Counted from the stretch's first letter, positions 8,272 through 47,536 are shown. The stretch is DNA of 64,000 bases from Candidatus Zixiibacteriota bacterium (GCA_024276275.1 JAJRXM010000020.1:3231-67230); one strand, 5' to 3'. Translations and numbers: made by a program. Notes: a model not told the origin generated them from the letters alone.

Positions 8272-9543
8272 TTAAAAATTATAAGTCATTTTTGTATATA
8301 TGTTATCATTAAGGTCTAATGAACCAAATTCAGTATTGGCATATTTACCGTCAAAAACATTTGCACCAATAGTAAGTTTGATCTCATCAGAGTATTTGTA
8401 TTCGGTTGAGAATCTAAAATAGAAATCTTTTTCATCAGGAGAGTAAAATATAAAAGCCGAAACCGTCACAGTTTCATCACTCATCATTTTTGTCCATCGA
8501 CTTGTGACAAGATGTTTTATCTCATCACGGTAATGTGTTGCTCCCATAGATTCTTGTTCGGCAACAAAATAATTATAATCAAACATTTTATCAGCCTGCC
8601 ATTGTAGATTGACAGTGAAACCGGTAGCAACCTGTCGTTCAAAGCCGACCATACCGCTTACAGAAGAGTTAGGCATAAGTGGGTTGTCACCATCGGGGTC
8701 ATCTTTTGAGTTATAATAACCTCCTTCAAGCCAAAAAATTCCACCGAATTTTGCTCCTCTAATTGATGCACCATGGATTTCCATCCGAGGGTAAACAGGC
8801 ATTAATCCATTGGTTGCTACTTCAAGCCCTATTGGGTTCTTATAAAAACCTTTGTAAAAATAAAATGCTAAGGAATACATTCCTACCTGACGTTGAAATC
8901 TTGCCGCAAATTCAGAATTTTTAAATGTTTTTTCAGGCTCATCAGCATTAAAATAGAATTCTTCACCCATGCCGGTGGCAACAATTCCATACGAAGGATG
9001 ATAGTAGCTTAACTTCTCACCTGTTGGGAGACGGTTAGATTCAAATGTCGGTGAAAAAACAAACGAAAAAGAACCGAGGGAATTATAGTATTCCATTCGA
9101 ACTGCATTTTGTGGTGCTTTCAAGTATTGGTCATCACGTCCTAAGAAAAACGAACGGTAATCTTTGGCAAAGACATCATTGATAAAAATTAAATCACCGG
9201 TTCCCCAAGTAAGAATCTGCCGTCCGACTTTAAAATCTAGTTTACTTCCTAAACGAAATTTCAGATATGCTTCTCGAATTTCCCAATCATATTGTTTTTG
9301 TTCTTCAGCAAGACCGTCATAGACAAAATCTATGCGAGAGACAAACTCACCTTGGTCTCCGACAGACTCCATGCGCATCTGTAGCCTTGTTTCAGAAACC
9401 GACTGGTCAGACTTTGTCGGGTTATCTTTGTTCAGTTGTCCGCCGAAAAGTCCCTGTACATACCCGTCGGTATATAGTTCCGCATTTATCTGCGGAACTA
9501 TTATGAATAAAAATATTGCTGTTAAATATATTATTTTTTTCAT
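8272..9543 (-). CDS. Outer-membrane beta-barrel protein (porin-like), partner of the LolA-like/MMPL genes
   Basis: Signal peptide MKKIIYLTAIFLFIIVPQINA, alternating-hydrophobic beta-strand pattern throughout, C-terminal ...MTYNF (terminal Phe). Confidence 0.55.
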   Translation of the reverse strand: MKKIIYLTAIFLFIIVPQINAELYTDGYVQGLFGGQLNKDNPTKSDQSVSETRLQMRMESVGDQGEFVSRIDFVYDGLAEEQKQYDWEIREAYLKFRLGSKLDFKVGRQILTWGTGDLIFINDVFAKDYRSFFLGRDDQYLKAPQNAVRMEYYNSLGSFSFVFSPTFESNRLPTGEKLSYYHPSYGIVATGMGEEFYFNADEPEKTFKNSEFAARFQRQVGMYSLAFYFYKGFYKNPIGLEVATNGLMPVYPRMEIHGASIRGAKFGGIFWLEGGYYNSKDDPDGDNPLMPNSSVSGMVGFERQVATGFTVNLQWQADKMFDYNYFVAEQESMGATHYRDEIKHLVTSRWTKMMSDETVTVSAFIFYSPDEKDFYFRFSTEYKYSDEIKLTIGANVFDGKYANTEFGSLDLNDNIYTKMTYNF

Positions 9544-9557
9544 TTTATTAGTCTCAC

Positions 9558-10271
9558 TTACTTCTTAATATATTTCCTTGGAGGATTTTTTAAATAGCGT
9601 TCAGTGAAAATATCTTCTTTAATGCCTACGTTATAACTGATTTTGTTAAACGAAACAGTTGTATGTCCGCCTTTTTTTATGTTGTTCATTGTGCGAACCG
9701 TTATAGTAGGAATTCCGTCTATAACTTCAATTTTGTCAGCAGAAAATTCTTTCACAAGTTTATCTTTTTTGTTAAAGTATTCTTCTTTTAACGGAAGCAT
9801 CGATTCTTTGTCAATGTAAGAGACTTTGCGGGAGAATCCTTTGTATTTTTTCTTAGGAACAGATTCAATCACGTAAACAGCTTTACCGTCTAAAGTTTCC
9901 TCACCTTTTAATGAGTGGGTATCTTCGGTCCAATGACGACCGGAGACATCTTCATACGAAAAATCAGAGCCGACAAAACTTGAATTTTTGTCATCTGCTG
10001 AAATAGGTTTGATTAAATCAATGGATGGAATATAAATCCAGCGTTGATCGTTTCCCTCAGAAGTTTTATGCACCATAAAAGTAATGCGTGAAACATCGGA
10101 TGGTTTTTTGAAATAGGTGTAATATTTTTGATTACCGCCTTCTTCAATGTCCAAACGAATCATGATAAACTCACGAATCCGCTCTTTACCTTTTTTGGAT
10201 ACGATAGTCATCTTGACATCGGAAAGACCGTCATCACCTGAATAAAAATATGCCAAGTGCGATTCTTTCAT
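9558..10271 (-). CDS. LolA-like outer-membrane lipoprotein-sorting family protein (N-terminus cut off by an in-frame TAA)
   Basis: The 237-aa ORF resembles the LolA-like family usually found next to MMPL/RND exporters. The same frame continues upstream to ATG 10361 and encodes a signal peptide, MKKLTTLFLTFLLIFSLSGSRT, interrupted only by TAA at 10295-10293. Confidence 0.6.
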   Translation of the reverse strand: MKESHLAYFYSGDDGLSDVKMTIVSKKGKERIREFIMIRLDIEEGGNQKYYTYFKKPSDVSRITFMVHKTSEGNDQRWIYIPSIDLIKPISADDKNSSFVGSDFSYEDVSGRHWTEDTHSLKGEETLDGKAVYVIESVPKKKYKGFSRKVSYIDKESMLPLKEEYFNKKDKLVKEFSADKIEVIDGIPTITVRTMNNIKKGGHTTVSFNKISYNVGIKEDIFTERYLKNPPRKYIKK

Positions 10272-10391: not shown

Positions 10392-12686
10392 CTAATTAAA
10401 TAATGTTTTTTTAAACATTCTGGTTAAGGACGGAAGCAATAGCATTGTTACTAAGCCCGAGACAATCATTATTGCGAAGAAAAAAGCTCCGACAGTTATA
10501 TATGGTACCAATGTTGAAAACAACATAGGAAGAAATCCTATTGCTATTACCATTACATTTCGAGAGATTGCTCTGCCGGTACCTTCAAATATTTCATGAT
10601 ATGAATCATTAAAGTTTTTAGTTCGTTTATGGATAACCCGAAGTCGTTGTATGAAATGTATCGCAAAGTCAATAGAGAGTCCAAGCGTAAGTGACGAAAG
10701 AACCGCAACCGGCATATCATACGGTTTGCCGATATATCCTATAAAGGCATAAATAGCCATGACCGTAATGGTGAGCGGCAGCATTGAGAAAAATCCCCAT
10801 TTAAATGAACGGAATAAAAATACCATCATGATAAAGACGACAACAAATGATGATGCCAATGATTTTTGCATACCGGATACCATCTGATTTTGCCATTCAA
10901 TATTTATAAAGGGAAGACCCGCCCATTTTGCGGTGATACCTACCGGTGGTGGATTATCACTTATGAACTGATTACCGCGGTCAACGACGGCAGATACTGC
11001 CATGTTATCACCATTCTTCAATTGTACCCAAAGATTTGCTTTATCATATTCAGGAGTAACAAATTTAAAGAGATCATCAGGATTCCCGCCGGACATTTCA
11101 AACAGGAACAGAAGTTGAGCTATTTCATTGCTGTTATCAGGTATAACCATTTTAGCGGAATCTTCGGAATACAATTCATAACGAATTTTCTTTACAATAT
11201 CAGTAACACCTGTGGTAGAACCGACAGTTTTATCTTTAGCCAATTCTTTTTGCAGGCTTAACATGTAGTTGAGCAGTTCCGGTGACTTCATAGAACCTTC
11301 ATCTTCACCTTCAAAAACTAAGTAGTTCATGTAAGTTCCTGCAAGATGTGAGTTCATAGCATTGTCGGCTATTCGGATAGGGTGAGATTTTTTAAACCAC
11401 TTTACCGGGTTATCATTGACAACTATAAGGGATAAACCGACAGCAGCAACTACGACGACAACAGCAAATGATGATATAATAAGCTTATAATTTTTATGTG
11501 AAAAGTTTCTAAAAGAGTGCATTACCTTAGCAAGCATGCCATGTTGTTCTCCCGTATCTTTACCAAAATTACGGAGAGTTTTATCAGATATTAGCATAGC
11601 AATTGCCGGGTTAATTGTGAGAGATAAGAACCACGCAACTACAATGCCAAAGGCGACAAAAATACCAAAAACACGAACCGGCGGAATCGGGGTAAGAGCA
11701 AGCGAGAGAAATCCGGCAACGGTGGTCATTGAAGTAAAAAGCATAGGTACAAAAAGTTCATTTATGGAATGTCGTATTGTAGCATCTCTATGTTTATATT
11801 TTTTAAAGTTATCATGAAATTCTGAAATAATATGAATAGAGTTCAGAACTGAAATCGGCATTAGAAATATAGGAATCATTGATGACATTATATGAACAGT
11901 ATTACCGGTAAAAATCAGAAGTCCCATTGCCCAAATAACAGACATCATTGCAACAACCATTGGGGCAATAATAATTTTTACCTGTCTAAAAAACAAAAAG
12001 AGAAGCAAAAATATCACTCCCATAGCAGCCGGAGCCGAGACTGCCATCTGCACAAACATTTCAGACCCAAAGGAATCTTCAGCAAGAGGTAATCCTGCTA
12101 CATGATATTCAGCATTGCCCCCCAAACGGTCGGTAATCTCCTTAATCTCAGTATATAAGCGGTGCGATATTTTTTTTGATTCAATAGGGATAAAAATAGC
12201 AACTGCTTTACCGTCATCAGAAGCAATCTTACCACGTAAAATAGGGTTATTCATTATACGCTGATATATATGCTGTGCTTCTTCGTCAGTTTCGATTTCA
12301 TCTTCCATCAAAGGCTCAATAACAATAGAACCGCCTGCTCCCTGTTTTATATCATCAACCATAGAGATTGACATAATATCATCAACTATGACACCGTCAA
12401 GTTCGGCAATTTCTTCAGTTATACGATAAACTCTGTTAAGTTGGTCGGGCGTGAAAGCGGTCGGTTCGGCAACGATACCAACAGCAATAAAGTCGTATAG
12501 ATTAAAATTATCTTTAGTTGCTGCATGAAACAGGCGAGTCGGTTCGTCAGCTTCTAACATGTTTTGAGGGTCGGTATCAATTTTGATTTTTGGAAACTGC
12601 ATTGCAAAAAATGCTGTTATTAAAACAGCAAGACCGATAACAACCCAAGGTCTTTTAATTGAAAACTCTATAATTGCCTTTTTCAT
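10392..12686 (-). CDS. MMPL/RND-superfamily exporter
   Basis: 764 aa. Two repeats of one TM helix, a large soluble loop, then a cluster of about five TM helices, which is the RND/MMPL topology. Confidence 0.8.
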   Translation of the reverse strand: MKKAIIEFSIKRPWVVIGLAVLITAFFAMQFPKIKIDTDPQNMLEADEPTRLFHAATKDNFNLYDFIAVGIVAEPTAFTPDQLNRVYRITEEIAELDGVIVDDIMSISMVDDIKQGAGGSIVIEPLMEDEIETDEEAQHIYQRIMNNPILRGKIASDDGKAVAIFIPIESKKISHRLYTEIKEITDRLGGNAEYHVAGLPLAEDSFGSEMFVQMAVSAPAAMGVIFLLLFLFFRQVKIIIAPMVVAMMSVIWAMGLLIFTGNTVHIMSSMIPIFLMPISVLNSIHIISEFHDNFKKYKHRDATIRHSINELFVPMLFTSMTTVAGFLSLALTPIPPVRVFGIFVAFGIVVAWFLSLTINPAIAMLISDKTLRNFGKDTGEQHGMLAKVMHSFRNFSHKNYKLIISSFAVVVVVAAVGLSLIVVNDNPVKWFKKSHPIRIADNAMNSHLAGTYMNYLVFEGEDEGSMKSPELLNYMLSLQKELAKDKTVGSTTGVTDIVKKIRYELYSEDSAKMVIPDNSNEIAQLLFLFEMSGGNPDDLFKFVTPEYDKANLWVQLKNGDNMAVSAVVDRGNQFISDNPPPVGITAKWAGLPFINIEWQNQMVSGMQKSLASSFVVVFIMMVFLFRSFKWGFFSMLPLTITVMAIYAFIGYIGKPYDMPVAVLSSLTLGLSIDFAIHFIQRLRVIHKRTKNFNDSYHEIFEGTGRAISRNVMVIAIGFLPMLFSTLVPYITVGAFFFAIMIVSGLVTMLLLPSLTRMFKKTLFN

Positions 12687-12770: not shown

Positions 12771-12871
12771 CGAATGTGTGATAAATCAAATATAACTTTA
12801 TGTCGGGGAAGTATTAAGAAGATATTTACGGTTGTGTTTTAGATTTTAATATGAGCTGAAATTCAGTTATG

Positions 12872-24830: not shown

Positions 24831-25915
24831 TACTATTTACAAAATTAGATAGATATATTCTCAAACTCTTTTTTGTAACTTTGGCCGTTGTTATGGTTTC
24901 TATCGGTGTTATGATAATTGTTATCAACCTTGTAGAACTGCTGAGACATTTCATTGATAACAATGTACCGGTTGAACAAATAGTTGAATACTATTTATAC
25001 TTTGGCGGATGGGTCCTAAAACTATTTTTCCCTGTATTTATTCTGTTGGCTACTCTATTCTCTCTTTCGTACTTAGCAAAAAATAATGAGATTTTGGCTA
25101 TGAAAGCATCAGGCTTATCACTCTACCGGATTACCGCACCGATTTTAATTGTAGTTCTTTTATTATCAGCCTGTCATTTTTATTATAATGAATATATTTT
25201 CCCACCGGCTAATAAACGGCTGATTGAAATAAAAGAATTTAATATCAAAAAACGTTCAAAACGAAGGTATGACCAAGTAACAAATCTTTATCGACAAATC
25301 TCTCCCGGAAATTTTTATACTATCTCTGTCTTTTATGTATCAAAAGGCGAAGGTAAAGATTTTAAACTATATCGTACCGAAGGAAGTTCACTAAAAGAAC
25401 TTATAATCGCATCGACAATTACATATACCGATTACCGATGGATTGCCCGTAACGGAGTTGTCCGAACATTTGGAGACTCTATTAACCAGACTTTCACCGA
25501 GTTTGATTCTCTCTATTTAGATTATATCAAAGACAAACCTTCCGACTTATCCCGCAGAGTTGGTAAACCGGAAGATATGGGACTTGATGAGCTGCATGAA
25601 TACATTGCACTTATGAAACGGACAGGCGGACCCCATATCAGAGCTTCAGTTGATGAGCAGATAAAGTTTGCCTATCCATTAGCATCATTTATTGTAGTTC
25701 TGCTTTCTATACCTTTTGCTGCTAACCCCCGTAAGGGAGGTATTGCGGTTTCATTTTCAATCGGTGCTTTAATTGCACTAGTCTATTTTGTTCTTTTTAA
25801 AGTATTGCAGTCCGCAGGCTACAATGAAAAAGTTCCGGATTATGTTGCGGTCTGGGGTGTAAATACTCTTTTCTTTTTAATCGGTCTTATAGGACTTATA
25901 AAAGCGAGGAAATAA
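24827..25915 (+). CDS. LptF/LptG-family LPS export permease (second subunit)
   Basis: ATG 24827 overlaps the upstream TGA (ATGA). MILFTKLDRYILKLFFVTLAV shows the same family topology. The longer ORF-track start at 24719 lies inside the upstream gene. Confidence 0.8.
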   Translation: MILFTKLDRYILKLFFVTLAVVMVSIGVMIIVINLVELLRHFIDNNVPVEQIVEYYLYFGGWVLKLFFPVFILLATLFSLSYLAKNNEILAMKASGLSLYRITAPILIVVLLLSACHFYYNEYIFPPANKRLIEIKEFNIKKRSKRRYDQVTNLYRQISPGNFYTISVFYVSKGEGKDFKLYRTEGSSLKELIIASTITYTDYRWIARNGVVRTFGDSINQTFTEFDSLYLDYIKDKPSDLSRRVGKPEDMGLDELHEYIALMKRTGGPHIRASVDEQIKFAYPLASFIVVLLSIPFAANPRKGGIAVSFSIGALIALVYFVLFKVLQSAGYNEKVPDYVAVWGVNTLFFLIGLIGLIKARK

Positions 25916-26697
25916 TGGCAAACCTAGATCATGAAAAAAACAGAGCTGCCTGGAACGACATGGTTGAAATTCATTATGATCATCCCGACTATAAACTCAA
26001 AGAATTTCTAAACGGATGGAACTCTCTGAAAGAAATCGAACGCACTGCTCTTGGTGATGTAAACGGTAAGTCATTACTGCATCTGATGTGTCAATTCGGG
26101 ATGGACACACTTTCGTGGGGTCGTCTCGGTGCCGATGTTACCGGAGTTGATATCTCCGATAAATCTATTGAGTATGCTCACAAACTTAAACAGGCTGCCG
26201 ACATGCCCGATGCCGACTTTATTCGTTCTGACTTGTTAGAATTAAACGGTAAGATAGATACAAAATTTGATATTGTTTTTCAGTCGCACGGTACTCTCTG
26301 CTGGCTTGCCGATTTGAATAAATGGGCAGAGGTTATCGCTTATCACTTAAAACCCGACGGGACATTTTTAGTCGTCGATGGTCACCCGTATAACGTTCTT
26401 TGGGAAACAGAAACAATGACCTATCTTGATAAAAAACCGGAACGGTACAAAAACGAACGGGACTATTGCGACCGTGATTTTATAATTGAAAAAGAATTAG
26501 TAGAATGGCAGCATCCTCTTTCTGAAATCATTAACTCACTTATATCAGTCGGATTAACAATTGAATTTCTGCATGAATATGATAAAGGATTTTATGCTGT
26601 TGAAGAGGATTGGTATCAAGTCGGTGACTACTGGTATCCACCGAACGGAGCCCCTCGCTACCCACTAATGTTCGCACTAAAAGCTGTAAAAAAATAA
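25915..26697 (+). CDS. Class I SAM-dependent methyltransferase
   Basis: SLLHLMCQFGMDTLSWGRLGADVTGVDIS is motif I. 260 aa. Confidence 0.75.
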   Translation: MANLDHEKNRAAWNDMVEIHYDHPDYKLKEFLNGWNSLKEIERTALGDVNGKSLLHLMCQFGMDTLSWGRLGADVTGVDISDKSIEYAHKLKQAADMPDADFIRSDLLELNGKIDTKFDIVFQSHGTLCWLADLNKWAEVIAYHLKPDGTFLVVDGHPYNVLWETETMTYLDKKPERYKNERDYCDRDFIIEKELVEWQHPLSEIINSLISVGLTIEFLHEYDKGFYAVEEDWYQVGDYWYPPNGAPRYPLMFALKAVKK

Positions 26698-26703
26698 TTG
26701 TAT

Positions 26704-26735
26704 GTCAGAACCCTTTAGTGGTTCTGACATCTTTC
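26704..26735 (+). terminator. Hairpin after the methyltransferase gene
   Basis: gtcagaacc/ggttctgac is a 9-bp stem, followed by a weak T tract (atctttc). Confidence 0.4.
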
Positions 26736-27080
26736 AAAGTTACCCACAATTTTCAAAACAATATATTCTTTGTAATTCTTTTATACTTATAGCGTTATAA
26801 CAAATTGGCTTTGGGATGTGGTATTGCATTATTTTTGGTGCAAATGTTTTTCTCCAAAATTTGAGGTATAAGTATAGTTATATTGTAATGTGTGTTATAA
26901 TTGTTGTAGATTTTTTGTACTGTCATAGTTTCTCTAAATGGATGTGTCATACATAAGAGGGTTGAATATTCTTTTGTGTTGAATTCGTATAAAAAGCGAT
27001 TGGCTATTAATCAATTTCAATTTATAATACACTATGAAAAGTTCTCATAAAATAATTTTAGTTTTAGAAAATTAATTCAG

Positions 27081-28400
27081 ATGAAATTTGAAAAAAATTA
27101 TTTCCAACTAAAGGGAAAAAATGCTGAAGACGCAATTAATCAGCTTGCTTACAAGTCATTTCTAAAAGAATGGTGTTATCCAAATCCTAAAGATAAGACT
27201 GGAAAAGAAATTTGTGATTTATTGGTTGTTTTTGATGACATTGTTATAATTATTCAAATTAAAGATATTAAATTTAATGGAAATGATGAAAGATATATTA
27301 AAAAAGCATTTGAACATCCTATGAAACAAATTTTTGGAGCGGAACGTAATTTATTTTCTTTATCAGAGAATCTTGAACTTGAAAATCCAAATGGCGATAT
27401 AATAACTTTTAATAAATCAGAGATAACAAATATATATCGACTAGTATTTAGTATCGGGAGTGGTGATGTTCCTTATAATATTATACAGGAACAAAAAGGA
27501 AAATTAATTCATACTTTTGATTCTACTATCGAAAGTATTTTAAATGAACTAGATACTATTTCTGATTTCTGTAAATATTTGAAAGATAAAGAAGATTTAA
27601 TAATTTCAAATCCTAAATTACAAATCATAGCTTCACGTGAACTTGATATCTTATGTGAATATATCAAAGATAAAAAAACATTTGACCATTTAGAAAATGT
27701 GAATTTAAAAAATTATGATGATGGCATCTGGGAAAAATTTATATATAGTAATGTATATAAGGCAAAAAAAGAAGCAGATAAAATTAGTTATTTTTGCGAT
27801 GATTTAATTGAATTAACTAGTACATGCCCAGAAAAAGAAGATAGGGAAATTGCTAGAGAATTATCCAAATTAGATCGTTTTTCAAGAAGAATATTTTCCG
27901 ATTTTTTTATATCTGCACATGAACAAGCAGAAAAAAGAAATGTAACATATAGAAGATATTTTGAGAATGAAGGTACTACATATTGTTTCTTATTTACACC
28001 AAAGGATTTTGAAAGAATAAATCGAAAAGATCTATTACATGGCTCTTGTTATGTAACAAGAAATGAATATAGAAACAACTTTTTGGTAATTGGAATTGCT
28101 ACAGAAATAGGAAGTTTAATCCCTCATTCATATGATTTCCTCTATTTGTACTTTGAAGAATGGGAAGAAGAAAATATCCAAGAGGCGAAAAGAATTCAAG
28201 ATAAATTTAATATTCATGAATCACCTAAAGAAACTTTAAGTACAATTGATGAATATCCTATAAGTGATGAAACGATTCAAGTTAAGCGTGAAGTGTCGGG
28301 AGTAAAAACATTTAAAAGGAAGTATAAAAAAATAGGTCGTAATGAGAAATGTCCCTGTGGTAGTAACTTGAAATATAAAAATTGTTGTATTATTGACTAG
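27081..28400 (+). CDS. NERD-like (PD-(D/E)xK-type) N-terminal domain protein with C-terminal SEC-C zinc motif
   Basis: GKNAEDAINQL...GKEICDLLVVFDDIVIIIQIKDIKFNG follows the NERD pattern (E-x-D-hhhh...h-x-h-[EQ]-x-K). The extreme C-terminus CPCGSNLKYKNCC is a SEC-C motif. The gene is markedly AT-richer than its neighbours. Confidence 0.55.
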   Translation: MKFEKNYFQLKGKNAEDAINQLAYKSFLKEWCYPNPKDKTGKEICDLLVVFDDIVIIIQIKDIKFNGNDERYIKKAFEHPMKQIFGAERNLFSLSENLELENPNGDIITFNKSEITNIYRLVFSIGSGDVPYNIIQEQKGKLIHTFDSTIESILNELDTISDFCKYLKDKEDLIISNPKLQIIASRELDILCEYIKDKKTFDHLENVNLKNYDDGIWEKFIYSNVYKAKKEADKISYFCDDLIELTSTCPEKEDREIARELSKLDRFSRRIFSDFFISAHEQAEKRNVTYRRYFENEGTTYCFLFTPKDFERINRKDLLHGSCYVTRNEYRNNFLVIGIATEIGSLIPHSYDFLYLYFEEWEEENIQEAKRIQDKFNIHESPKETLSTIDEYPISDETIQVKREVSGVKTFKRKYKKIGRNEKCPCGSNLKYKNCCIID

Positions 28401-28713
28401 TTCTTCATTTTTACGTACTACAAAAACCTTACAAACTCCCAGTATATTTACATCACATCCTCTTCTATGAACAACTTAATTTGATGTGAGAAAAAACAAT
28501 GAACAAAATCACTACAATAAATATGACCGAAAATGGCTTTAAGCCATTTTATATGGCAAAGCCATTTCGCCGTAAAAGGCTATGCCTGATTTGTTTATCA
28601 GAAAAAATAGCTGTAAAAATGGAAGTTTTAGTGTCCCTTTATATGCGAAACGAACCCATTTCTAAATTAATTTAGTTATTGAGTTCTTAATAATTTGAGA
28701 ATATATTTTATCT

Positions 28714-29187
28714 ATGATAATAATTATTCGAGGTCCATCGGGTGCGGGTAAATCTACTGTATCTAACGAACTGGCAAAACAGCACAAGGCATCGCTTGTA
28801 ATATCGCTTGATGAAATCCGTCATTGGATAACTGACTGGACATTTGCCGACAAAGAAGCCCTTCTCGCATTACAATCGGCAGCATCAACAGCACAGATTT
28901 ATCACGACAAAGGCTATACCGTTTTTATCGATCATGTCTTTTTAAATCGCTGGGAGTTTGATAAGTTTGTAGAATCGGTTAAAATAGACGAACCTCAAAT
29001 TAAGTTATTTACTTTAACAGCAGACTTAGATATGCTGGTAAATAGAGATAACGGTCTGCCTGATAATTTAAAAATGGGAAAACGAGTCGAGACATTATAT
29101 GATGAATTTAAAAACTCTGATGAAACCCGAGGCATTACAATAGATACAACAAATATGACAGTTGATAAAATAAATTCTGAATTATAA
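28714..29187 (+). CDS. Small P-loop kinase-like ATPase (AAA_33/zeta-like size class)
   Basis: MIIIIRGPSGAGKSTVSNELA is a Walker A motif at the N-terminus. 157 aa. Confidence 0.55.
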   Translation: MIIIIRGPSGAGKSTVSNELAKQHKASLVISLDEIRHWITDWTFADKEALLALQSAASTAQIYHDKGYTVFIDHVFLNRWEFDKFVESVKIDEPQIKLFTLTADLDMLVNRDNGLPDNLKMGKRVETLYDEFKNSDETRGITIDTTNMTVDKINSEL

Positions 29188-29271
29188 AAGAGTAGGTCGT
29201 CGTTCCGATTTAAAAAAATATAATTGTGAGAAACCCGACAGACGAACTGTTCCGTTTAGAAAAGATAAAAT

Positions 29272-29763
29272 ATGGATTACAAACATGCGATAAAAAAACA
29301 GTACGAAGCATCACTCAATATGCTTGGACAGGCAATAAAAAATTGTCCTGACTCACTTTGGAACGACCAATCATACACAAACAAATACTGGCATATTGCT
29401 TTCCACACTCTTTACTTTACCGATTTATATACCCAAGGGACTGATAAAAATTTTGTGAAATGGGTAAAATATAAGGACAGTTTCGAATTTCTTGACCGTG
29501 AACCTGGCGAAGCACCTATACCTGCAGAAGATGCCTACACCAAAGAAGAAGTTTTAGAGTATTACAATTATGTAGTTAATAACTTAGATGCACGAATCGA
29601 CTCAACCGATATGGAATTAGCCTCCGAAGTTTCTTGGATTCCGTTTACATCGTTTGAGCTGCAGATACATAATATCAAGCATATCCAGCATCATGTCGGG
29701 ATGTTGTTTGAACGACTGCGAAATAATAACATAGATGTCGAATGGGCAAGACGGGAAGGATAG
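29272..29763 (+). CDS. DinB-superfamily four-helix-bundle protein
   Basis: His-rich helices WHIAFHTLYF and HNIKHIQHHVGML; 163 aa. Confidence 0.5.
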   Translation: MDYKHAIKKQYEASLNMLGQAIKNCPDSLWNDQSYTNKYWHIAFHTLYFTDLYTQGTDKNFVKWVKYKDSFEFLDREPGEAPIPAEDAYTKEEVLEYYNYVVNNLDARIDSTDMELASEVSWIPFTSFELQIHNIKHIQHHVGMLFERLRNNNIDVEWARREG

Positions 29764-29767
29764 GATA

Positions 29768-29791
29768 GTAGGGGCGTTTCGTGAAACGCCC
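29768..29791 (+). repeat. REP-like element (GTAGG + hairpin)
   Basis: GTAGG, then the 8-bp stem gggcgttt/aaacgccc. Confidence 0.45.
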
Positions 29792-29915
29792 TGTGTTAAC
29801 ATTAGCAGGAGAGGACGTCTTACATGTATAAAAAAAAGAGCGGTGATAACACCACTCTTTCTGGATTCCCAATCAAGTTGGGAATGACATTATTGTAAAT
29901 CAGCCTTCAGGCTGC

Positions 29916-45580: not shown

Positions 45581-46130
45581 TTGTTTAGAAATAACTCAAA
45601 CAGATTAAAAGATTTTGATTATGCCAATAACGGAGGGTATTTCATAACGATTTGTACCCAAAATAGTGTGCATATCTTTGGCGAAATTAAAGATGAAAAG
45701 ATGATATTAAACGATGTTGGGAGAATGGTTGAAAAATGGTGGTTAGAATTATCAAATAAGTTTAATAACATTAAGTTAGATGAATTTACTATTATGCCAA
45801 ATCATGTACATGGAATAATTATACTTGTAGGGGCAGACCTGCGTGTCTGCCCAAATGAAAAGGGCGAACACACAGGTTCGCCCCTACAGGAGATAATGCT
45901 AATGAATATTTTAGAAATGTAAAAAACAAGAATTGGAAACCGGTTGAAAAAAACTATGGCAACGGGGATATTACGACCATATTATTCGTGAAGAAAAAGA
46001 ACTATCAAATATTCGTACATATATTCAAAACAATCCTCTAAAATGGCATCTTGATATTGAAAACAGAAGTAATAATCGAAAAATTGAGTTGTTAGAATAT
46101 TATAAAGATATATATGAAAATAAATTGTAG
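45581..46130 (+). pseudogene. REP-associated tyrosine transposase (RayT / IS200-like Y1 HUH), degraded
   Basis: N-terminal YFITICTQNSVHIFG and the HUH motif MPNHVHGIIIL are in frame 1. NEYFRNVKNKNWKPVEK is in a second frame. LWQRGYYDHIIREEKELSNIRTYIQNNPLKWHLD is in a third, after the A7 run at 45947-45953. The usual segment between GSPLQ and NEY appears shortened. Confidence 0.7.
45827..45887. repeat. Inverted pair of GTAG-type REP hairpins (BIME-like), inside the RayT-like reading frame
   Basis: GTAGGGGCAGACCTGCGTGTCTGCCC on the plus strand and GTAGGGGCGAACCTGTGTGTTCGCCC on the minus strand, tail to tail, with spacer aaatgaaaa. Confidence 0.7.
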
Positions 46131-46190: not shown

Positions 46191-46712
46191 TCAATCTTTC
46201 AATTTTGCGTATATATAACGATCGTACATTTTGCCGTTTATACATAAATAATTTTTCAATAACCCTTCCCGTTCAAACCGAGCTTTTTCCAAAATTTTCC
46301 AGGAAGCAATATTTTTTGGGTGAACATGGGCGTAGATTCGTACCAATTTAATTTTATCAAAACAATAACCGGTAAACATCTGTATTGCCTCAAGCATAAT
46401 CCCTTTTCCCCAAAAAGGTTTTGCCAGCCAGTATCCTAATTCGCCGTGTTGATGGGTCTCGTTGATAGAGTTTAAATCAATCATCCCGATAATCTCTTGT
46501 GTCTCTTTATTTTCTATACCGAAATGCAACGATGTCATAGATTTACGGTCATTTATACACATTGTAATAAAGTCTACTGCATTTTGAATTGTATACGGAT
46601 GAGGAATAACAGTAAACTGAGAAATTTCTCTCTCAGAACAATACTTAGCAATGGAGTCAGCATCTTCAAGAGTTGTATAGCGTAGATTTATTTTGTCCCC
46701 GATTATCTTCAT
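46191..46712 (-). CDS. GNAT-family N-acetyltransferase (RimJ/RimL-like)
   Basis: 173 aa. ELGYWLAKPFWGKGIMLEA (acetyl-CoA site region) and HPKNIASWKILEKARFEREG. Confidence 0.8.
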   Translation of the reverse strand: MKIIGDKINLRYTTLEDADSIAKYCSEREISQFTVIPHPYTIQNAVDFITMCINDRKSMTSLHFGIENKETQEIIGMIDLNSINETHQHGELGYWLAKPFWGKGIMLEAIQMFTGYCFDKIKLVRIYAHVHPKNIASWKILEKARFEREGLLKNYLCINGKMYDRYIYAKLKD

Positions 46713-47536
46713 GGTTCTACAATGTTAAAATGTTTTTTGGCTAATTCCCAAATATCTATTGGTTCGATATGGATTGAATCAATGATAAAATCAGTATGAG
46801 AAACACCATCTACAGTTTTTGGGTTTATATGTTCAAACTGATTTTTCTTAAATATTCTATAATTGTTATATTTCAAATTACTCGTAATTAGTTCAGGCTT
46901 TTCATGAGTGTAACCAATATCAAACATGCTACCATTATGACTTTTCGAAGTAACTCTAGGTGTACGTCTTTCATCAACTAAGGAATGAAATATAACAAAA
47001 TGCTGTTTTTTTACTTCTTTTAAAAAATAAAAAGCATCACATGCATTATGAAAATCATCAAAATAAGTTGAAGTTATGAGATAATTTGAACTATCTGGAA
47101 ACTTACCTTGATATTCGATTTTACTGTACGGACTACATGCGGGATTGTATGCAAATGCATTGATATATTCTAGGCTATCATTGTTTAAGACATTCCAAGA
47201 TGTAATAATACTTTTTGATAAATTAAGACCTGAATTCTGAAATGTGGATATAAAAAATGTATCTTTGGTTGGTATTTCTAATTTATCTTCAATGTATAGA
47301 CTAAACCAAAGATTTGATAATTGAGGTGCGACTCCAACCCAAATTTGTTCATCTATTATGTTAAAGTCTAAAGTCCATTCTTTTGGAGTAATAAAGTTAT
47401 TAACTTTTCTATCTTGTATATTTTTGAAATCATATGCGATTCGAACTTTTTTCAAATCATCCCGATGGATTGTTTGGCTTGAGATGCTGGAGGAGGAAAA
47501 TATAAATACTAAACAGCTTATTACGATAAGTTTCAT
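46709..47536 (-). CDS. Secreted protein of unknown function
   Basis: 275 aa. Signal peptide MKLIVISCLVFIFSSSSISS. AT-rich, with no recognisable domain. Confidence 0.5.
   Translation of the reverse strand: MKLIVISCLVFIFSSSSISSQTIHRDDLKKVRIAYDFKNIQDRKVNNFITPKEWTLDFNIIDEQIWVGVAPQLSNLWFSLYIEDKLEIPTKDTFFISTFQNSGLNLSKSIITSWNVLNNDSLEYINAFAYNPACSPYSKIEYQGKFPDSSNYLITSTYFDDFHNACDAFYFLKEVKKQHFVIFHSLVDERRTPRVTSKSHNGSMFDIGYTHEKPELITSNLKYNNYRIFKKNQFEHINPKTVDGVSHTDFIIDSIHIEPIDIWELAKKHFNIVEP

Follow-up and report, generated by a model that had tools for sequence, protein, structure and literature searches.

On the plus strand of a 64,000-nucleotide stretch of DNA from a Candidatus Zixiibacteriota bacterium (GCA_024276275.1, JAJRXM010000020.1:3231-67230; the whole stretch is called the window here), an AT-rich gene for a protein of 439 amino acids (aa) stands between the lptF-lptG-methyltransferase block and ahcY, followed by genes for a small P-loop kinase and a DinB-like protein. 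This locus raises the question of where the 439-aa gene came from, whether it forms a unit with its two smaller neighbours, and what its product does. An initial annotation, made from the sequence alone, had taken the islet for what one would expect of a horizontally acquired defence or stress module. Here, we report that 1.7 kb of this islet (26697-28415), consisting of a single self-contained gene and the AT-rich region upstream of it, were recently inserted by horizontal transfer, which is well supported, that the gene belongs to a family moving horizontally between distant microbes, and that its product is, with a probability of roughly 0.5, a stand-alone conflict nuclease of the defence type.

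A single-gene insertion between the methyltransferase gene and ahcY

Six related Zixibacteria genomes, found through AhcY homologues on long contigs (AhcY 81-96% identical), were compared with the window, and the 439-aa gene was absent from the locus in all six. DNA homology to four of them (L081, L084, L085 and L086) stops at approximately 26696, the stop codon of the methyltransferase gene, and homology to relatives starts again at 28416, i.e. 16 bp past the stop codon of the 439-aa open reading frame (ORF), which leaves a genome-specific segment of approximately 26697-28415. The content of the methyltransferase-ahcY interval is different in every relative. L087 (AhcY 81%) has an empty site with the methyltransferase gene and ahcY approximately 3 bp apart; L086 (87%) carries a second methyltransferase, an HhH-GPD glycosylase, a GNAT protein and a small ORF, and L085 (93%) a 93-aa ORF and a DUF1801/OmdA protein. 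Between methyltransferase and ahcY, L081 (96%) shows a 154-aa ORF, an 83-aa ORF, kinase, DinB and a 100-aa ORF, and L084 (94%) a 273-aa ORF, kinase, DinB and Imm40, while in L082 (95%), the left flank of which is rearranged, a 270-aa ORF, kinase, DinB and a 425-aa DUF6602 protein precede ahcY. Since the content is different in each case and nil in L087, the interval is an insertion hotspot. It has two variable slots, methyltransferase-kinase and DinB-ahcY, the second of which is empty in the window.

The base composition of the segment was ranked against that of 55 non-overlapping window ORFs, each of at least 120 aa. The 439-aa ORF has the lowest GC content of all (26.5% versus a mean of 36.9%, sd 3.3, z = -3.2; window 36.2%), and its GC content at third codon positions is similarly deviant (14.5% versus an ORF mean of 30.2%, z = -3.1). 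The ORF-free stretch in front of it (26698-27080) measures 383 bp at 26.9% GC, so that both the gene-free AT-rich stretch of about 380 bp and the visibly AT-richer gene of the initial annotation were found as described. The composition shift holds for approximately 26697-28415, but not for the kinase gene (36.1% GC) and the DinB gene (38.2% GC), which are compositionally ordinary. Deviant composition and absence from the locus in the six relatives support horizontal acquisition of the 439-aa gene, rather than its being a universal, syntenic component of the locus. Within the upstream region, a promoter-like site (27000-27028, TTGGCT-17-TATAAT) agrees with the consensus in 10 of 12 positions, albeit such matches are no commoner in this region than in shuffled sequence.

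The kinase and DinB genes, on the other hand, form an older unit common to the four closest genomes; their orthologues adjoin in L081, L082 and L084, and the region of the kinase gene shares 78% DNA identity with a relative. One could ask if the 439-aa gene, which stands next to these genes on the same strand, belongs with them to a chromosomal operon for stress response or detoxification and has a function in housekeeping or repair, the more so as detoxification-like cargo is present in the interval of relatives. This reading is largely refuted by synteny, as the kinase-DinB pair occurs without the 439-aa gene in L081, L082 and L084. Furthermore, the 439-aa gene comes with an upstream region of its own, 383 bp long, and is separated from the kinase gene by a conserved, putative leader of 300 bp, its composition is unlike that of both neighbours, and no kinase or DinB neighbour was found in 80 other loci of the family. 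We regard such an operon as extremely improbable. Nor does the islet hold together as one module, given the greater age of the kinase and DinB genes and their lack of any link to the 439-aa family, for which no conserved neighbour was found in 80 loci.

Some of the cargo of the relatives deserves mention in its own right. The 425-aa DUF6602 protein of L082 has a PD_DExK/NucC-like N-terminal domain and is non-homologous to the 439-aa family; as a candidate member, it was rejected at an hhalign probability of 2%. L084 carries an Imm40 immunity-type protein at 11417-11794 (precomputed Pfam annotation), and the 83-aa ORF of L081 (13433-13684) gives a weak HNH match (E 0.009).

A horizontally mobile family of undescribed proteins

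A homologue search with the 439-aa protein retrieved 1,026 proteins, and a scan of 1.84 billion cluster representatives yielded 1,998 clusters at 50% identity (E<=1e-10), nearly all of 380-440 aa. The family was found in 399 of 185,579 species-representative genomes (approximately 0.2%), with hosts including Zixibacteria, Ignavibacteriales, Chloroflexota, Planctomycetota, Acidobacteriota, Patescibacteria, Bacteroidota and Desulfobacterota among the bacteria and Woesearchaeota and Altiarchaeota among the archaea. Identity is typically 35-45%, irrespective of phylum. The closest homologue, in L001, is 61% identical at the amino acid and 72% at the nucleotide level and lies in a different gene context. 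Neither Pfam nor PADLOC 2.0 nor the literature that could be searched contains a description of the family.

The low GC content is a property of the family as well: over 72 loci, the family gene differs from its flanks by -6.2 GC points on average (negative in 65 loci; Wilcoxon p = 1.3e-10), compared to +1.3 points for control ORFs in these loci. When all ORFs in the 10-kb flanks of 80 loci were clustered, no conserved neighbour emerged, the most recurrent ones being ABC ATPases (8, the window included), tyrosine recombinases (7) and Fic/DOC proteins (6). No conserved small partner or antitoxin ORF was found near family genes either; one apparent small partner was rejected as a false ORF derived from a repeat.

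Family members are also carried by plasmids. The 491-aa protein WP_020324153.1, annotated as 'SEC-C metal-binding domain-containing protein' and encoded on the IncN plasmid NZ_KX881941.1 (L088, 5449-6921), is a full-length member (hhalign probability 100%, E 5.7e-44). Genes of this type are flanked by repA and a resolvase gene on many conjugative IncN plasmids from Klebsiella, E. coli and Citrobacter, approximately 1.4 kb from the resolvase gene and on the opposite strand. The unannotated PHROGs family phrog_18195 matches the IncN protein, and tblastn against deposited phage genomes gave no family match. On the Diaphorobacter plasmid NZ_CP049911.1 (L089, 8040-11336), a 378-aa member without SEC-C is convergent to the gene of a 715-aa NERD+SEC-C protein, so that two different SEC-C/NERD-type proteins are found side by side.

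On plasmids of Enterococcus faecalis, SEC-C-ending proteins (L090, 2708-4072; L091, 2575-3072) have their genes immediately 5' of one for a resolvase or recombinase, an arrangement that recalls the IncN one. Their protein bodies are non-homologous to the family, and an Enterococcus plasmid protein that had looked promising was rejected as a relative because only the SEC-C motif is shared.

Domain architecture and putative active site

The AlphaFold model of the 439-aa protein has a predicted local distance difference test (pLDDT) score of 90 and a predicted template modelling score of 0.84, with only the linker at residues 396-414 disordered. In a Pfam and NCBIfam scan of the full protein, SEC-C was the sole library match. 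The NERD-like motif with Q at the usual E position, which had been pointed out in the initial annotation, corresponds to EICDLLVVFDDIVIIIQIKD at residues 43-62 and is part of an N-terminal signature E16...E43-x2-D46...(Q/S)59-x-K61...Q83. Residue conservation was taken from an alignment of 81 diverse family members, in which E16, W31, E43, D46, K61 and Q83 are invariant, among them the putative catalytic residues E16, D46 and K61. Position 59 is occupied by Q (44), S (35) or C (1) and never by D or E. As Q or S stands at this position throughout the family, the replacement of E by Q is a family-wide trait and no lesion of this copy.

Several comparisons point to a nuclease fold of the N-terminal domain. 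The best local Foldseek matches in the PDB are the small subunit of R.BspD6I (probability 0.95) and Nt.BspD6I (0.85), followed by RecE, CidB/CinB, splicing endonucleases and Can2; among the named structures matched in BFVD, nearly all are RecB/PDDEXK nucleases. By sequence, phmmer gave a weak match to the restriction endonuclease EcoT38I (E 0.046), and a profile search of PDB sequences gave nothing beyond chance. The best Pfam match of the isolated N-terminal domain is NERD (PF08378); the two coincide over the core strands, and both have an acidic position conserved in helix 1 and a Q conserved in the helix that follows strand 3. In hhalign, D46 is paired with the D, and IQIK with the LQAK, of the Pfam-significant NERD domain of the 715-aa Diaphorobacter protein, which likewise ends in SEC-C and has QxK instead of ExK. 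The canonical NERD pattern E...D...ExK is not reproduced in the family, since the residue at position 59 is non-acidic, notwithstanding the invariant E16, D46 and K61; (Q/S)xK replaces ExK throughout, and the module of 250 residues that follows is absent from the NERD domain itself. These matches support a predicted nuclease fold at the level of the PD-(D/E)xK superfamily, while assignment to NERD proper fails the Pfam threshold.

Variants with QxK, such as TnsA of Tn7, and with SxK, such as Cfr10I, NgoMIV and Bse634I, are active enzymes in which the glutamate is supplied from elsewhere. The D...(Q/S)xK pattern of these proteins is kept in the family, which makes activity of the 439-aa protein plausible. 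No sequence or Pfam match to TnsA or such restriction enzymes was found in the 439-aa protein, and no TnsB-like or methyltransferase partner is conserved around family genes in the 80 loci. As a whole, the model is matched best by CidB/CinB (7esy_B, E 5.3e-4), i.e. cytoplasmic-incompatibility nucleases with tandem PD-(D/E)xK domains; this match superposes very poorly (TM-score 0.16, rmsd 20 A) and lacks sequence similarity, and a second nuclease domain would be only putative in the family.

The region between the two terminal domains, left unassigned in the initial annotation, found no assignment in Pfam, NCBIfam or PADLOC. Its main part (residues 149-395) is a helical and alpha/beta module with its own set of invariant residues (E156, T159, D162, W217, S236, D240, R266, R269, R270 and a terminal E-Y-P), and a structure search with the domain model gave weak nuclease-fold matches and no PDB match at E<=1e-3. 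The C-terminus is a SEC-C motif, as annotated (Pfam PF02810, residues 420-436, 29.7 bits versus a 20.4-bit cutoff, E 5.8e-7), and matches C-terminal peptides of SecA and YchJ in the PDB. Like the knuckles of SecA, YecA and YchJ, it is a terminal CxC-x8-C(C/H) zinc/iron knuckle on a flexible linker; unlike these, it is attached to a nuclease-fold protein, may stand at either end and is dispensable. Sequences of the Zixibacteria type carry SEC-C at the C-terminus and many others at the N-terminus, and 48 of the 120 closest homologues lack it. This variable position and frequent absence argue for an accessory role, possibly in tethering.

It is conceivable that the nuclease fold is retained without catalysis, in a DNA- or RNA-binding or regulatory protein for maintenance, partition or establishment of mobile elements, of which the chromosomal copies would be remnants. 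Such a role would account for the permanent Q or S at position 59, for the second cluster of strictly invariant residues outside the nuclease domain, for the location of the IncN copy between the genes for the replication initiator and a resolvase, and for the recombinases in 7 of 80 loci and the IS200-type transposase adjoining in L003. However, invariance of E16, E43, D46 and K61 across phyla would be unusual for a dead active site, QxK and SxK are compatible with activity in TnsA and Cfr10I/NgoMIV, and most chromosomal copies have no mobile-element genes nearby. On balance, we consider a non-catalytic protein unlikely.

Defence context and proposed function

Neighbours of the family genes were scored with PADLOC-DB 2.0, comparing 146 immediate neighbours with 146 distal genes at least 6.5 kb away in the same loci. 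Immediate neighbours matched 176 PADLOC families versus 96 for distal genes, and approximately 12 versus 4-5 PADLOC names at E<1e-50, corresponding to a roughly two- to threefold enrichment of defence genes. Strong cases are Dsr1 in L013, a Type I HsdR in L042 and Upx in L048; a cyclase of the cyclic-oligonucleotide-based anti-phage signalling system (CBASS), AbiEii, MADS and LmuA are likewise found among the immediate neighbours.

Hotspot location, transfer signature, patchy distribution, plasmid carriage, nuclease architecture and defence neighbours, together with the PD_DExK/NucC-like protein of L082 and the Imm40 of L084 as cargo of the same hotspot, lead us to read the 439-aa protein as a stand-alone defence protein. 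This is the best-supported reading, albeit a circumstantial one, and we hold it to be about as probable as not. The protein would take part in defence, either against phages or by abortive infection, or in the competition of mobile elements with one another. Its N-terminal domain would cut nucleic acid by means of E16, D46 and K61, with E43 as a possible second acid, the module at residues 149-395 may sense a trigger or gate the activity, and the SEC-C knuckle may serve as an optional tether to a cellular partner, as in SecA.

A number of results weigh against this reading. With regard to the nuclease, the second acid of (D/E)xK is never present in the family, which makes catalysis only putative; NERD does not appear in the full-length Pfam scan at E<=1 and reaches 14.5 bits versus a 22.1-bit cutoff (E 0.052) with the N-terminal domain alone; the hhalign alignment to the Diaphorobacter NERD domain has an E of 7.9e-4 and a probability of 25%; and the Foldseek matches are globally weak, with TM-scores of at most 0.2 normalised to the query. 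As for defence, the enrichment among neighbours is modest and counted per family instead of per locus, numerous neighbours have housekeeping functions (DNA polymerase III alpha, acetate kinase, LytB, enoyl-CoA hydratase), and no model of PADLOC-DB 2.0 matches the core of the protein, all matches (PDC-S12 and E1-E2/E2 models) being confined to residues 409-437, i.e. the SEC-C tail. Finally, the insert is bordered by neither an integrase gene nor a tRNA nor direct repeats of the att type that could explain its entry, and hotspot cargo in relatives is partly of the detoxification type (GNAT, HhH-GPD, methyltransferase, DUF1801), so that the hotspot is not defence-specific.

Among known systems, Rugutis offers a precedent. 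It is a validated single-gene, abortive-infection-type anti-phage system of lactococcal plasmids, 359 aa long and triggered by the phage large terminase, in which SEC-C is the only recognisable feature and for which a confident AlphaFold model gave no significant PDB match (PMC11381338; PMC12184496). Compared by description and not by sequence, the 439-aa family resembles it as a single gene on mobile DNA with a terminal SEC-C, which in many members is N-terminal as well. It differs in size, 359 aa versus approximately 425 aa for members with an N-terminal SEC-C, and plasmid searches with the family gave no lactococcal match. In SecA, SecB and ribosomes are the binding partners of the SEC-C knuckle (bioRxiv 10.1101/613315). 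A more far-reaching and clearly more tentative version of the defence reading is that of a so far unrecognised, widespread type of single-protein nuclease for immunity or competition between elements, in which a NERD-like (Q/S)xK domain and a new sensor module would be stationed by SEC-C on ribosomes or SecB-like partners and sense foreign proteins during their synthesis. This protein would be at work in uncultured phyla as well as on clinically important IncN resistance plasmids; a distant relationship to Rugutis is conceivable.

Spacer, neighbouring genes and hairpin elements

The coordinates of all features are listed in Table 1. The two smaller proteins turned out to be what the initial annotation had named them: the P-loop kinase is an AAA_33 protein (Pfam E 3.5e-12, 47.3 bits versus a 27-bit cutoff) and the DinB-fold protein a DinB_2 protein (E 7.8e-7, 30.0 bits versus a 24.8-bit cutoff).

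Table 1 Features of the methyltransferase-ahcY interval in the window.
Feature	Position	Strand	Remarks
lptF, lptG, then S-adenosylmethionine-dependent methyltransferase	25915-26697 (methyltransferase)	+
AT-rich upstream spacer	26697-27080	+	5' part of insert; specific to this genome
Hairpin right after methyltransferase stop codon	26702-26730		11-bp stem, from terminator scan
439-aa ORF	27081-28400	+	Member of undescribed, horizontally mobile protein family
Putative N-terminal NERD-like PD-(D/E)xK-fold domain	27108-27524	+	Residues ~10-148; Foldseek, Pfam, hhalign
Conserved helical and alpha/beta module	27525-28265	+	Residues 149-395; domain model pLDDT 90.4
Flexible linker between core and SEC-C	28266-28337	+	pLDDT <50 at residues 396-414; length and sequence variable among homologues
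SEC-C zinc knuckle	28338-28388	+	Residues 420-436; Cys424, Cys426, Cys435, Cys436
Spacer between 439-aa ORF and kinase gene			313 bp
AAA_33 P-loop kinase	28714-29187	+	157 aa
DinB_2-fold protein	29272-29763	+	163 aa
REP-like element, GTAGGGGC head and GC-rich hairpin	29768-29791	+	3' of DinB gene
Hairpin site GATTCCCAATCAAGTTGGGAATGAC, pattern GATTCCCAAT.AA.TTGGGAATGACATT	29864-29888	+	Single-copy in window
ahcY-metK pair			Convergent, 3' of DinB gene

The spacer in front of the kinase gene is more stably folded than shuffled sequence (z = -3.6), which bears out its description as structured. On the plus strand, 28416-28713 is 77-78% identical to L081 (13091-13381) and shares blocks with L084 (13064-13262), neither of which carries the 439-aa gene; near-invariant blocks are TCAAAATCACTACAA, the hairpin AAATGGCTT.AAGCCATTT, and TTTATATGCGAAACGAACCCATTT. 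Since it is kept in L081, the spacer belongs to the kinase gene and not to the insert. No Rfam family matched 28416-28713, and a 58-aa ORF inside the spacer has a start codon that is not conserved in L081. From these features, the region is best read as a putative leader or operator of the kinase-DinB unit.

A hairpin element of 73 bp within the spacer (28503-28575) recurs with 86% identity at L001 4119-4191, just 3' of the gene for the closest homologue of the 439-aa protein and in an otherwise unrelated context. This recurrence makes the element a dispersed repeat, too. The region as a whole may serve as leader or operator, be a dispersed repeat or mark the boundary of a cassette. A metagenome scan with the element returned one 1-kb contig and was uninformative. 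A RAGATH-30 match at 28011-28062 inside the 439-aa ORF was rejected as a chance match far below the Rfam cutoff (23 bits versus a gathering score of 59.5, E 0.29).

Two GTAGG repetitive extragenic palindromic (REP) elements had been annotated as flanking the DinB gene, and one of them stood up to analysis. As criterion for REP elements, we used a repeated head motif plus a stable GC-rich hairpin. The head GTAGGGGC is present in three copies in the window versus 0.47 expected, a number reached in 0 of 100 shuffles, and each copy is followed by a GC-rich hairpin: the one at 29768 (hairpin of 29768-29791, z = -4.2) and an inverted pair at 45827 and 45887. The second annotated site, at 29191, forms no hairpin (z = +0.12), and AGTAGG alone occurs in the window at chance frequency. 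GTAGGG heads similar to the REP-like element are present at cargo junctions in L081, L082, L084 and L086.

The members of the inverted pair lie 60 bp apart, and the DNA of 45827-45887 folds stably (z = -5.9). Approximately 0.8 kb from this pair, a 275-aa ORF on the minus strand (46709-47536) ranks second among the window ORFs in AT content (28.9% GC) and is not matched by any Pfam model; possibly, it was acquired as well. In L003, a gene for an IS200-type Y1 transposase (9433-9927; Pfam Y1_Tnp, E 1.4e-12) lies directly upstream of a Zixibacteria homologue of the 439-aa gene. The REP-associated tyrosine transposases (RAYTs) are members of this transposase family.

Two further hairpins mark positions in the hotspot. 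The hairpin at 26702-26730 marks the left edge of the variable interval; a 34-bp copy with 91% identity is located at the ahcY-proximal end of the L086 island, and the hairpin of the window is probably the ancestral terminator of the convergent methyltransferase/ahcY pair. The hairpin site at 29864-29888, of which a related copy exists in L001, marks the DinB-ahcY slot, the second one, which is empty in the window. In L082, two copies of this type of hairpin (11317-11348 and 12776-12809) bracket the inserted DUF6602 gene, a pattern that suggests cassette insertion or duplication at the hairpin site without a visible integrase.

These elements bring up the possibility that the 439-aa protein is a selfish one, a free-standing homing-type PD-(D/E)xK endonuclease that drives its own insertion at intergenic sites near hairpin repeats. 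A single gene that is AT-rich relative to its host, placed with its own AT-rich flank exactly between conserved genes, would fit such an element, and so would the position of both the window gene and the L001 gene directly upstream of the 73-bp hairpin element and the REP-like hairpins at cargo junctions of relatives. However, the protein is large, with a conserved 250-residue module and a SEC-C motif that one would not expect in a homing endonuclease. The gene is not found in several copies per genome, has neither an intron nor an intein as context, and lacks a duplicated target site at this slot; moreover, the other cargo in the slot is unrelated, so that the hotspot and not the gene accounts for the location. 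A homing-type element is thus improbable in our view, and more so than a non-catalytic protein; a stand-alone conflict nuclease remains the reading that we prefer.

Significance

If the family is a working conflict nuclease of the stand-alone PD-(D/E)xK kind, it would add a new single-gene architecture, i.e. NERD-like domain, novel module and SEC-C, to the defence repertoire and could explain the 'hypothetical' gene beside repA on IncN backbones. The Zixibacteria hotspot itself is compact, with unrelated cargo swapped beside REP-like hairpins and no visible integrase, and thus bears on how accessory genes move in uncultured lineages. If the defence reading is true, the system would span bacteria, archaea and IncN plasmids, with the enterobacterial WP_020324153.1 being directly testable, and it would provide a first functional context for SEC-C on proteins outside the Sec pathway.

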